A stretch of DNA of 64,000 bases from a virus. Lineage: Duplodnaviria; Heunggongvirae; Uroviricota; Caudoviricetes. Below, piece after piece: positions 4,829 to 43,820 of this stretch. A model generated the notes under the pieces. It was not told the origin of the DNA, did not search any database, and worked only from the letters and a program-made list of their open reading frames with translations. Position 1 is the stretch's first letter. Each line of letters opens with the position of its first letter. The translations under genes were made by a program, and so were the position numbers. The stretch is from the IMG/VR virus record IMGVR_UViG_3300037466_001997, positions 64,001 to 128,000 of that record; one strand, written 5' to 3'.

Positions 4829-5385
4829 GCTAAAGCCTTTCTGATAAAAACCTTGCCAGTCTTCTTCATGAACCCTTTGTGCATGGTTGAAGCCTGTCTT
4901 ACATTTTCCGTGGCAATGTCGGAATAATTGAAGCCATATTCTGAAAATTTCGCAATCCACCATGCCTCGGTCTGTAGATTGACATGGTGATGTCCCGCTG
5001 TTTCACCGGGCAGCGCATGGGTACAAATGACAATACGACAACGCCTGAACGTGTCCATAATGTTTGGAATGAACCGTTCCTCTACATGTTCCAAAAATTC
5101 TGTGGATAGACCAACGTCGAATTCGAACAGTTCGATACTATTTGGGAGAGTACCTAAAGTGTAGTCGTGTTTGAAAATGATAGGATCATTTTGCGGATTG
5201 AGACGTTGAAGTTCCGGATCACCGTCAATTCCAATGGCGGTGAAACCGTATTCCCTAGCCATCAGCACATTGCCGCCCGGTCCACAACCAACGTCAATCA
5301 AAGACCTGTATCCGCAATGATGCAAATACTTTATCACGCCTTCATCGACATGGGTTTTCCACAGATGTCCGCCTAGATGGTTCAA
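4825..5385 (-). CDS. Class I SAM-dependent methyltransferase
   Basis: LIDVGCGPG motif I, IGIDG, STEFLEHV, HHHVNLQ. Confidence 0.85.
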   Translation of the reverse strand: MNHLGGHLWKTHVDEGVIKYLHHCGYRSLIDVGCGPGGNVLMAREYGFTAIGIDGDPELQRLNPQNDPIIFKHDYTLGTLPNSIELFEFDVGLSTEFLEHVEERFIPNIMDTFRRCRIVICTHALPGETAGHHHVNLQTEAWWIAKFSEYGFNYSDIATENVRQASTMHKGFMKKTGKVFIRKALA

Positions 5386-8205: not shown

Positions 8206-10152
8206 TTAAGCCTTCAAAAGGTCCACGATTTCACAATTTCCAGCCACACAGGACAATTCTTGGCTACCGCTGGTTTTATCTTCCGTTTCATATTTGGACA
8301 ATGTAGACCAGTCAACCTCTGTCGGCATCACAGCCAAGAGCTTTTCATATTCCTCTGCCGTGCATTCCTGATAAGGGGCTTGCTGGTATGAGTGATCCGA
8401 GTGAGGCAAGAACGAAACACCGCCAATGTCATCAAAGTTGGCATACACCCAAGCGCCAACGCTGAACCACTCGTCTTCCTTGACCGTGATGGTAATCGAG
8501 GGGTTGTGTTCCGTCCAATAGGTTCGATAAATTTTCCAAATTTCTAGATGTGTAATGGCCGATATGGAATCACGGAAAACCGCCCCTTCCGGGGATTTGA
8601 TCGGGAATGAAAAGACATAATTATGATTTGGGTTCATCACATCATCTTCCACTGGGAACCCCATGTCAACCATCATTTGTGCCAGTGGGTCTTTTTTATC
8701 CGCACGAACTGTTCTGATATAATATGGGCTATGTCTGGTATGAATACCGGATGCAGCATCAGTCAATTGTGAGATTGTGCCAGACGGCTTGACGGTTGTG
8801 ATAGCGGCTGATGGCGGAATGCCCAGAGCGGCGGCAATTTCCTTGTTGACATCAACAGTTTCTTGACGAAGGATTTGGAGCCATGATATCAACTCAACCT
8901 TGCTTTTCGAACCGTTCATGACTTCATGGTCCATGATGCCGGTCAAGGAAACGCCTAGCAGACGTTCTTCATCACAGTTCTGTTTCCATTTCTTGTTGAT
9001 GTATTTGAAATCTGTAAGGGTGGATTGGAACGTACCCAGAATGGTCGCCAAACGCACCTTGCGTTTCAAACTTTCCAGTGTGTCGGTTGGACGAACCACA
9101 ACTTCCGATAGGTTGCAGAATTCGTATGGACGAAGGATAATTTCGCCACAAGGGTTGACACCCCAGTCCTTATCGGGTTCTCGACGGCCATATTTGGCGA
9201 CTTGCTTGTTAGCCGAAACACGATTGAAAACGCCACGTTCACCAGATTTCGAACGGTATAGAGACAGCCATTCTTCCATGAAAATGCCAATTTCTGGCTT
9301 TTCGGTATAAGCGGCTGAATTGTTGGCAATCGAACGCTGTGGATTGATTTCCCACCATTGACCAGACTTCGCATTGCGCATACGATCATCTGAAAGGTTC
9401 GAAAGGGAAATCAATGCCGAGCGGCGGACACCACCCACGACAACGATTTGGGCAATCTTGCAAACCAAATCATGGGCTTCGACTGATGTCAGCTTTCGTC
9501 CGGCTGCGTTTCGGAACAAGCGAACCGCAAAGCGGAAAAGGTCTTCCAAAGGGGCGGGACCAGAAGAACGGCCCCCGAAAGTCTTAAGGCGGGCACCGGC
9601 TGGACGAAGCTTGGATGTATCCCATTTCGGAATCTGTCCACCATAGAGAAGATGGATAAGTTCCTTTAGAGCCTTGGCCCAACCAAGCTTGGAATCGGCA
9701 ACCACAATGGTTGTATCGGTTGGAAAAAATTCATCTGCAATTTCTGGAAGCTTGGAAACGAACTGGCGTTCAACAGAGAAGCCGACGCCAGTACCATTCA
9801 TGAGAATGTAGAGAATTTCGTCAAACGCCGTAGTGCGGTCGATTGGCAGGAAGGAACAGTTATAACCGGCGATGTTGTCACGCTCTAGGGCGGGACCAGC
9901 GGTCATAAGCGCTCGCATGGAAGGCATGACTTCCAAATTCAGGATGGCTTCTTCGATTTCTGATCTTAGTTCGTCAGTCAAAGAATAATTATGGTTCTTG
10001 GCAAGATGCCCAGAAAAGAAATTAAAATATCGAGCAACAGTTTCTGGCCATTCTTCACGTCTATTTTCTTCTTCTATCCATTTTGAGTAGCGGCTCTTGA
10101 AAATGAATTGTTGATAAACGTCCATTCCATAATTGTTCTTCTTACTAAGCAT
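8206..10152 (-). CDS. nrdJ: Class II (adenosylcobalamin-dependent) ribonucleotide reductase, monomeric RTPR type
   Basis: YNCSF, GVRRSALISL, NPCGEI, TTVKPSGT, C-terminal C..C; no intein or intron evident. Confidence 0.95.
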   Translation of the reverse strand: MLSKKNNYGMDVYQQFIFKSRYSKWIEEENRREEWPETVARYFNFFSGHLAKNHNYSLTDELRSEIEEAILNLEVMPSMRALMTAGPALERDNIAGYNCSFLPIDRTTAFDEILYILMNGTGVGFSVERQFVSKLPEIADEFFPTDTTIVVADSKLGWAKALKELIHLLYGGQIPKWDTSKLRPAGARLKTFGGRSSGPAPLEDLFRFAVRLFRNAAGRKLTSVEAHDLVCKIAQIVVVGGVRRSALISLSNLSDDRMRNAKSGQWWEINPQRSIANNSAAYTEKPEIGIFMEEWLSLYRSKSGERGVFNRVSANKQVAKYGRREPDKDWGVNPCGEIILRPYEFCNLSEVVVRPTDTLESLKRKVRLATILGTFQSTLTDFKYINKKWKQNCDEERLLGVSLTGIMDHEVMNGSKSKVELISWLQILRQETVDVNKEIAAALGIPPSAAITTVKPSGTISQLTDAASGIHTRHSPYYIRTVRADKKDPLAQMMVDMGFPVEDDVMNPNHNYVFSFPIKSPEGAVFRDSISAITHLEIWKIYRTYWTEHNPSITITVKEDEWFSVGAWVYANFDDIGGVSFLPHSDHSYQQAPYQECTAEEYEKLLAVMPTEVDWSTLSKYETEDKTSGSQELSCVAGNCEIVDLLKA

Positions 10153-43511: not shown

Positions 43512-43785
43512 GAATTAGACGGGCGTCCTGACCAGACTAGACGAACCCGTCCATAGTGTGGTGGACAGGTATGGGATTCGAACCCTATGTTTCCCGGTTC
43601 TGTGGTGGGCTAAAGCCGCTTGCATTTCACCACGTATTCGTGGAATTGGCTGTTTTTAGAGCGCTGTTTTGCCCGGATATCTCAAACCCGGCAGTCTCAC
43701 ATTACCCCCTTCTAATACTCACCGGAGTAGCCACATGGGTCTAGTCCGTCGCCGCTACGGCGTAAAGGAGCGGGGCACCAATTCT
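43512..43785 (-). ncRNA. Structured non-coding RNA with circularly permuted tRNA-like domain
   Basis: T-loop GGGTTCGAATCCC and ACCTGTCC-A-CCA precede a 6-nt spacer and a tRNA 5' half GGACGGGT-TC-GTCTAGTCTGGTCAGGAC; own promoter; several hairpins. Confidence 0.6.
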
Positions 43786-43791
43786 TCATTT

Positions 43792-43820
43792 ACTATATAT
43801 CAAAGTTTTTAAGGAGTCAA
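43792..43820 (-). promoter_or_regulatory. Sigma70-type promoter driving the ncRNA
   Basis: TTGACT-N17-TATAGT. Confidence 0.8.

Follow-up and report, generated by a model that had tools for sequence, protein, structure and literature searches.

An orphan YrlA-type tRNA mimic upstream of a Thg1-like gene in a T4-like soil phage

We analysed a 64-kb stretch of DNA, hereafter the window (positions 64,001 to 128,000 of IMG/VR record IMGVR_UViG_3300037466_001997), from the genome of a T4-like soil phage (labelled G000, 100% complete), and focused on a locus on its minus strand that is predicted to encode a structured RNA with a circularly permuted tRNA-like domain. Coordinates given without a genome or contig label are window positions, and the features of the RNA and of the genes behind it all lie on the minus strand. 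Immediately behind the stop codon that ends a gp46/Rad50-like gene (43824-45539), the locus opens with a sigma-70-type promoter (43820-43792), TTGACT (43820-43815)-N17-TATAGT (43797-43792), which matches the consensus at 10 of 12 positions and places a predicted transcription start near 43786. An earlier sequence-only reading of this stretch had described a promoter-driven RNA of ~270 nt; the hexamers and the 17-nt spacer are as it gave them, and the transcript is predicted at about 270-300 nt. Its 5' side, which that reading gave as ~190 nt of hairpins, is better described as a separate conserved domain (Module A, 43784-43643) plus a connector hairpin (43633-43602) than as a loose set. The permuted tRNA-like domain follows (Module B, 43597-43519), and behind it lie the gene P0001, a small open reading frame (ORF), a Thg1-like gene, a nucleoside deoxyribosyltransferase-like gene, and a peptide deformylase gene. 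This gene order is identical in all four lineages found to carry the RNA.

Module B runs in the order anticodon-stem 3' strand, AAAC, T arm, acceptor hairpin, UC, D arm, G, anticodon-stem 5' strand, and every motif previously listed for this region is present where it was placed. The anticodon-stem 3' strand CCGGG (43597-43593) is followed by AAAC as the variable region (43592-43589) and by a T arm (43588-43571) with a canonical UUCGAAU loop and a 5' strand, ATAGGG, that contains one bulged A. Next comes the acceptor hairpin (43570-43545), in which the 3' strand ACCTGTCC (as RNA ACCUGUCC; 43570-43563) leads through A 43562, CCA (43561-43559), and the loop CACTAT (CACUAU; 43558-43553) into the 5' strand GGACGGGT (as RNA GGACGGGU; 43552-43545). 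The two strands form the proposed helix of eight pairs, seven of them Watson-Crick and one G.U. After UC, the claimed D arm proved real and canonical (GUCU, AGUCUGGUCA, GGAC; 43542-43525), and G 43524 and the anticodon-stem 5' strand CCCGT (43523-43519) complete the domain. The nucleotides for the U8-A14, G15-C48, and T54-A58 interactions, and for G18G19 with the T loop, can all be read from the sequence. As in permuted tRNA genes of the C. merolae type, the 3' half precedes the 5' half and is joined to it by a short acceptor-closing linker, here A-CCA-CACUAU.

Standard annotation tools pass over this domain. ARAGORN called four ordinary tRNAs in the window and nothing at Module B in its native order, and neither ARAGORN nor RF00005 found a contiguous cloverleaf with an anticodon loop there. 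The Rfam search proposed alongside the sequence-only reading gave no match at the locus, either at gathering thresholds or at E ≤ 10 with relaxed filters. When the two halves were rejoined in normal order with a dummy loop, ARAGORN called a tRNA cloverleaf for this unit and for the four related units described below. Energy-based folding of the 300-nt RNA as a single sequence gave a minimum free energy structure no better than shuffles (z = -0.94). This structure also proposed a 5'/3' closing helix and a pairing that would disrupt the D arm; both were rejected, as neither is kept in a two-sequence consensus.

Close relatives were identified via neighbouring proteins (i.e., by synteny) and not via the RNA itself. 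The gp46-like protein led to L003/L004, an alignment of P0001 led to L017, and a 51%-identical P0001 homologue led to L188, which lies on a 261-kb contig. In total, four lineages carry the element at the same site (gp46 78% or P0001 33-51% identical) behind a promoter conserved in position, with the same hexamers in L188 and with TTGACA-N17-TATATA in L003 and L017. Because L017 has two tandem units, the clade comprises five units. Their acceptor helices show compensatory changes at four of eight positions with pairing kept, except for one G.G mismatch in L017 unit 2, and the top pair is G-C in all five. The proposed pairing of CCCG with CGGG as an anticodon-type stem is likewise maintained through compensatory changes (CCGGG/CCCGU, CGGGG/CCCUG, UGGGG/CCCCA, UAGGG/CCCUA, and UCGGG/CCCGC across the five units), the T stem covaries in the same manner, and CU stands directly after the anticodon-stem 5' strand in all units. 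The eight acceptor pairs are followed by A-CCA in the window and L017 unit 1, or by A-CAA in L188, L003, and L017 unit 2. Thus, the helices keep pairing across homologues collected without reference to the RNA, and the 3' half precedes the 5' half throughout the clade, as it had been read in the window.

A covariance model of Module B (R1), built without L188, scored L188 at 79 bits as an independent match and the window copy at 72 bits. By this model, G000 and the L003 phage each have one copy, and the L017 phage has two. Module B is far beyond chance, and the RNA is real and conserved. We accept the tRNA-like fold, which is very likely, because covariation supports the tRNA-like helices; every step beyond the fold we infer. 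Using blastn against 50,697 phage records returned zero matches, and exact-core and clade-specific patterns run over IMG/VR and JGI metagenomes found nothing beyond the contigs already known. A looser metagenome pattern recovered 26 tandems of ordinary tRNA-Lys and tRNA-Glu genes, which served as a negative control; neighbouring acceptor strands of ordinary tandem tRNAs are complementary at only 3-4 of 7 positions. The sequencing runs listed for the locus are DNA only, from rhizosphere and soil, and contigs from the same samples showed no variants of the locus, only an L003-type relative.

The order and topology of Module B are those of the tRNA-like domain of YrlA RNAs. In YrlA, a V region and a T stem-loop come first, then an acceptor stem-loop, and after it a D stem-loop; the ends of the RNA pair into a stem that binds Ro60 and carries the motif GNCGAAN0-1G (Chen et al. 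2014, PMC4201824). The M. smegmatis YrlA has a 7-bp acceptor; RNase P cleaves this RNA in vitro, and in vivo it is both cleaved and given a CCA tail (Chen et al. 2014, PMC4201824). The structure of a YrlA tRNA-like domain has been solved (Wang et al. 2018, doi 10.1101/312249), and some YrlA RNAs are phage-encoded, including one from a mycobacteriophage (PMC4201824; doi 10.1101/312249). Module B and YrlA both build an anticodon-type stem from two ends without an anticodon loop, both retain the tertiary nucleotides of the T and D loops, and each occurs in phages. Pseudouridine-55 and dihydrouridine (TruB, DusA) have also been demonstrated in YrlA. With the M. smegmatis RNA, Module B further shares an acceptor helix of tRNA length and a CCA-like tail. 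The proposal that the locus encodes a new kind of RNA is therefore not supported. Judged from its sequence, Module B is a circularly permuted, acceptor-closed tRNA body of YrlA type, and its architecture is not new. It differs from YrlA in having an acceptor of 8 bp rather than 6-7, and in being fused to another structured domain in what is apparently an mRNA leader.

What sets the window clade apart is the missing Ro60 side of the system. The YrlA family RF02553 (gathering score 69 bits) had no match at the locus even at E ≤ 10, and its weak matches elsewhere in G000 are ordinary tRNAs. Within the transcript, the RNA strand has no GNCGAA motif. The promoters of L003 and L017 leave only 3-6 nt before the anticodon-type stem, with the -10 box about 7 nt from it, and for this reason these RNAs cannot form a terminal Ro-binding stem. 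On the protein side, TROVE (PF05731) is absent from G000, from the L003 phage genome G006, and from G007. DUF7788 is absent from the same three genomes in a search that covers the Ro-like family and detected its positive control, G008. DUF7873 is also absent from these three and DUF2828 from G000, where alone it was sought, with the controls silent in both of those searches. Lacking these genes, a GNCGAA stem, and an RF02553 match, the window clade is an orphan YrlA-type variant, and the phage very probably encodes no Ro60-type partner. The novelty lies in an orphan, composite, leader-embedded version of a known tRNA mimic with an 8-bp acceptor, and not in a new class.

The 5' part of the RNA is a module in its own right. 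Module A (~145 nt) is closed by helix P1, formed by GAAUUGGU (43784-43777) with GCCAAUUC (43650-43643), and contains P2 (GCCCC/GGGGU), inner hairpins, and P3. It is kept in L188 and, at another place, in the L003 phage (G006:233441-233554). Across these three copies, seven pairs are double-changed, a matching U.G is gained in P1 of G006, and two hairpins are optional. A covariance model (R2) scores 155 bits in the window and 102 bits in G006; over 46 phage records it found only the known copies, with nothing in 44 others. Module A matched no Rfam family. An 18-mer from it had zero matches in 185,579 species genomes, and all but one of the 66 matches in a 15-mer scan were due to chance, the true one being in G006. 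A 25-codon ORF inside Module A was rejected as coding, as it is cut to 11 codons in L188.

The G006 copy (= L206:4062-4181; L263) has its own TTGACA-N17-TATATA promoter and lies inside a tRNA array, between a tRNA-Lys(UUU) gene and a 90-nt tRNA-Lys(UUU) gene, 13 nt upstream of the latter. Only 4 nt separate these two tRNA-Lys genes in G000, by which comparison the promoter and Module A behave like a movable cassette. The 90-nt tRNA-Lys(UUU) is itself unusual for a tRNA-Lys in having a long variable arm; it was seen in two phages (G000:C1:42820-42909 (-) and L263:1627-1716) and is conserved between normal tRNA-Lys genes. Modules A and B are linked in the window by the connector hairpin (43633-43602), GUGGUG ... 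CACCAC with an inner GGC/GCC stem, which RNAalifold keeps for the window and L188 with three double changes, a weakly supported result from two sequences only. The CCACG/CGTGG hairpin that had been proposed as its competitor is not kept in relatives, and the supposed GACGGG/CCCGTC conformational switch is confined to the window, with no complement in L188, L003, or L017. The window RNA is a composite of Module A, the connector hairpin, and the tRNA mimic, with modules that occur independently.

Downstream, Module B is separated from P0001 by a 28-nt, terminator-free tail and linker, CUAAUUCUAAAAAAUGAAAGCUUAUUGA (43518-43491), and the linkers in L188 and L017 are similarly short and terminator-free. 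P0001 (43490-42582) encodes a 302-aa protein of no recognised family, follows the RNA in all four RNA-bearing lineages, and begins with a weak TTG start preceded by a poor Shine-Dalgarno sequence; the homologues from L003 and L188 align with it at the N-terminus, with synonymous differences. The protein has no Pfam family, no usable Atlas match, and matches only PHROG families without assigned function. Its AlphaFold2 model (predicted local distance difference test 73.5) had no significant PDB match, the best being tandem OB-fold proteins at E 0.04-0.1 and low probability, and its AFDB neighbours are unnamed proteins. A search with a P0001 peptide pattern alone found nothing; the alignment-based search succeeded. 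A hairpin resembling an intrinsic terminator, AAGCGGG ... CCCGCUU plus a U-rich tract (43436-43415), falls within P0001 codons 19-26; it is not conserved in L188, L003, or L017 and may be an attenuator or due to chance.

A small ORF of 75 codons (42585-42358) lies between P0001 and the Thg1-like gene (42377-41580). The latter had been noted downstream on the same strand and is real, belonging to the tRNA-His guanylyltransferase family (Pfam PF04446, E 1.5e-28; phrog_4717, E 2e-74). ARAGORN found 26 tRNA genes in G000, none of them for His, Gln, or Cys, despite the Thg1-like gene. Within the close clade, the RNA and P0001 co-occur: four lineages have both, and the complete relative G011 has neither. 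It is likely that the RNA is co-transcribed with P0001, and since no terminator follows it in the window, the RNA most likely also serves as an operon leader.

The tRNA-like body of Module B is shared with a wider set of phage loci. Candidates were sought in IMG/VR as T loops with the start of a D arm within 24-34 nt downstream, and complementarity of the flanking acceptor strands served as the filter. Most raw pattern matches were tandem ordinary tRNAs, and ~25 further phage loci had the same body, mostly in large phages with tRNA arrays; ARAGORN calls none of them a tRNA. No neighbouring gene is common to all loci with the tRNA-like body. Several jumbo-phage loci have flanks resembling a Ro-binding strand (CGGGCCGA ... 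GGGUUAUC ... ACUUGCCCG), and a TROVE protein is encoded in four of the five jumbo-phage records with a Y-stem-type RNA. The Ro-associated phage members have seven acceptor pairs followed by N-CCA. An NCCA-like tail recurs in the wider family, and U at position -1 (UAU followed by G) is kept in most CCA-type members. Five loci instead have the acceptor closed by a short loop (e.g., a UUCG tetraloop) and no CCA (L074:4918-5018, L084:4414-4514, L051:10134-10234, L107:6845-6944, and L112:753-852), and these probably form a never-cleaved subtype alongside the CCA-bearing one.

Some of these loci adjoin candidate protein partners. In L025, a permuted unit (4899-5006 (-)) lies between ACAGCAA sequences and adjoins a 558-aa DUF7788/DUF2828 protein (ORF L025:5229-6905 (-)). 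DUF7873 proteins stand beside permuted units on three unrelated contigs (L039:2470-3216, L069:48-392, and L105:4768-5535), assigned at E 5e-88 for L039 and E 5e-66 for L105, and by BLAST clustering only for L069; TROVE was absent from these three contigs where checked. The phage mimics with these proteins share the permuted T arm, acceptor hairpin, and D arm with Module B, and R1 scores them. They differ in that a candidate protein partner adjoins the RNA, whereas the window clade lacks these proteins, and in L025 ACAGCAA occurs on both flanks, whereas no ACAGCAA follows the D arm in the window. Additional R1 matches of 34-43 bits occur in phages with one strong copy (L105:4408-4515, L112:589-673, L103:4844-4930 and 8692-8773, L083:5891-5977, L040:2294-2385, L027:8608-8690, and L039:3458-3545). 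These candidates suggest several tRNA-mimic RNAs per genome.

The balance tips slightly toward reading the element as a Ro60-independent, YrlA-type tRNA mimic that is also an operon leader and is taken for a tRNA by a tRNA-binding protein. Under this reading, an early-type promoter would drive an RNA of ~300 nt with two independent modules, Module A and a tRNA body in permuted order. Module B folds into a cloverleaf and L-shape in which a 4-5 bp anticodon-type stem is built from its two ends and no anticodon loop exists, and the RNA would double as the leader of the operon of P0001, the small ORF, and the Thg1-like gene. By analogy with the M. smegmatis YrlA, host RNase P would cut between U43553 and G43552, 5' of the latter. 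We propose this cut because position -1 is a U and the acceptor/T stack, with its ACCA, is tRNA-like, and we put its chances at even. A U at -1 fits the preference of bacterial RNase P. Cleavage would leave Module A and the 3' half, ending near CCA, base-paired to a 5' half that heads the mRNA. Such an RNA could not decode and would most likely act by passing for a tRNA with enzymes of tRNA processing, modification, or repair. It resembles mascRNA/MALAT1-type signals and tRNA-mRNA co-transcripts in that a tRNA shape would let RNase P part upstream from downstream RNA, but theirs has the normal tRNA order, whereas here RNase P would cut within the mimic itself, and the two products would stay base-paired.

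Several observations weigh against this reading. The broader pairing statistics are less independent than they appear. A covariation computation on 15 sequences supports Module B, and in an alignment of 30 members 94.3% of cells are paired, with double changes in 17 of 21 pairs (0 of 500 shuffles reach the observed level, and slid controls reach 37-57%), but that alignment was fitted to the covariance model and is biased towards structure. Acceptor complementarity was moreover the selection filter for the pattern-derived loci, which makes their pairing statistics circular in part; evidence free of this filter comes only from the synteny-derived members, the T stem, and the anticodon-type stem. 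With respect to RNase P, the window has U-1 and ACCA, but three of five units have ACAA and would need trimming and CCA addition to acquire a CCA end, and the stack is 8+5 bp instead of 7+5, with an acceptor one pair longer than in the cleaved M. smegmatis case. Co-transcription is made less certain by a good terminator hairpin between the RNA and P0001 in L003, and by the terminator-like hairpin inside the P0001 coding sequence. The complete relative G011 has Thg1 yet lacks both the RNA and P0001, and distant homologues of P0001 are found where the RNA is missing; the links of the RNA to P0001 and Thg1 therefore amount to cassette-level synteny and not proof of partnership. Finally, the host may itself encode a Ro60.

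The same synteny bears on what the mimic might bind. The sequence-only reading had suggested a Thg1 substrate, an idea whose link is synteny and which the Thg1-bearing, RNA-free G011 weakens. It is unlikely, though conceivable, that the partner is the Thg1-like enzyme or P0001. Still more doubtful is a joint reading in which RNase P opens the RNA into a two-piece tRNA body that needs no Ro60 and whose invariant extra top G-C pair imitates G-1:C73 of tRNA-His. The Thg1-like 3'-5' polymerase, co-transcribed with it, and/or P0001 would use it as substrate or template or be regulated by it, in a phage with 26 tRNAs and no tRNA-His, and Module A would be a new RNA class riding on RNase P processing of a downstream tRNA-shaped element.

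Among alternatives, the one that survives best, though improbable, is a purely cis-acting leader, in which the fold is a processing and stability signal, or a tRNA-mimic operator, for the P0001/Thg1-like mRNA. RNase P cleavage, or binding by a tRNA-binding product of the operon, would set the 5' end, stability, or translation of the mRNA, and the released RNA would have no role. The terminator-free path to the TTG start in the window, L188, and L017 favours this explanation, as do the co-occurrence of the RNA and P0001 in the close clade (four with both, G011 with neither) and the weak TTG start with its poor Shine-Dalgarno sequence. However, in L003 a good terminator stands between this gene and the RNA, the same body occurs within tRNA arrays of many phages with no downstream mRNA, L017 has two tandem units that a simple operator does not need, and Module A elsewhere precedes a plain tRNA.

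A strict Y RNA, which would bind and redirect host Ro60/Rsr or an unrecognised phage Ro-like protein during infection, is quite improbable. Its tRNA-like module has the YrlA architecture, and phage relatives of that module occur with TROVE or DUF2828-type genes. Against this stand the absence of TROVE, DUF7788, and DUF7873 from G000, G006, and G007 and of DUF2828 from G000, together with the lack of GNCGAA on the RNA strand, of an RF02553 match, and of any possible terminal stem in L003 and L017.

A true permuted tRNA gene, with its ends trimmed and ligated (e.g., by a phage RNA ligase) into an anticodon loop and its acceptor loop opened to yield a decoding tRNA, is very unlikely. The 3' half does come first, the de-permuted halves do pass ARAGORN, and CU does follow the anticodon-stem 5' strand in all units. 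Neither a bulge-helix-bulge motif nor, in bacteria, a splicing endonuclease is known. No conserved anticodon or 7-nt loop can be built from the flanks, since these differ by lineage, being a ~190-nt structured region, a transcription start, or another unit: where the 3' side of the loop belongs, the window and L188 have ~190 nt of conserved structured RNA, and the L003 transcript starts at the stem. The acceptor also has 8 bp, and the wider family includes tetraloop-closed acceptors that can never open. The permuted tRNA genes reported for Cyanidioschyzon merolae (Soma et al. 2007) likewise have the 3' half upstream and a loop-closed acceptor in the precursor, but their termini form a spliceable stem that yields a true anticodon loop, which is not seen here. 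The absence of an anticodon loop also leaves the suggested decoy for anticodon nucleases a weak idea.

There is little chance that the element is a non-functional remnant of rearranged or duplicated tRNA genes. Phage tRNA regions are frequently rearranged, and most raw pattern matches were tandem ordinary tRNAs; yet four lineages keep the element at the same site behind a conserved promoter of its own, its helices show compensatory changes, and ordinary tandem tRNAs reach only 3-4 of 7 acceptor complementarity.

The tmRNA analogue suggested earlier is the least credible explanation: the T arm/CCA piece lies upstream as in the two-piece tmRNA of Alphaproteobacteria (RF01849, RF04321), with an intervening loop that would be excised and a CCA tail in the window, but Module B has no pseudoknots, a full canonical D arm, no alanine identity pair G3.U70, as had been noted (the window has A-U at position 3, and no relative has G.U there), and no tag frame, as no conserved ORF follows the D arm and the tail runs 28 nt into the P0001 start. 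ARAGORN in permuted mode, RF01849, and RF04321 all missed Module B, and the same tools found a genuine alpha-type two-piece tmRNA elsewhere in the genome. This tmRNA lies outside the window at G000:C1:132534-132948 (+) (L264:235-649), with the ARAGORN tag ANDNVAHEFAVAA and scores of 130 bits for RF01849 and 115 bits for RF04321. Its presence points towards an alphaproteobacterial host, which agrees with sampling from rhizosphere and soil.

To our knowledge, YrlA-type tRNA mimics are known only as Ro60 partners, and the job of the tRNA-like half is not established. A version without the Ro-binding half and without a Ro60 gene suggests an independent function for the tRNA-shaped half, its tRNA body being kept under purifying selection at the head of a Thg1-like operon. 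With Module A comes a small structured RNA, previously undescribed, that precedes a tRNA in one setting and a tRNA mimic in another. Loci of this kind escape tRNA finders and Rfam and consequently go unannotated in phage genomes, and the one described here offers a compact phage system for finding what binds the mimic.

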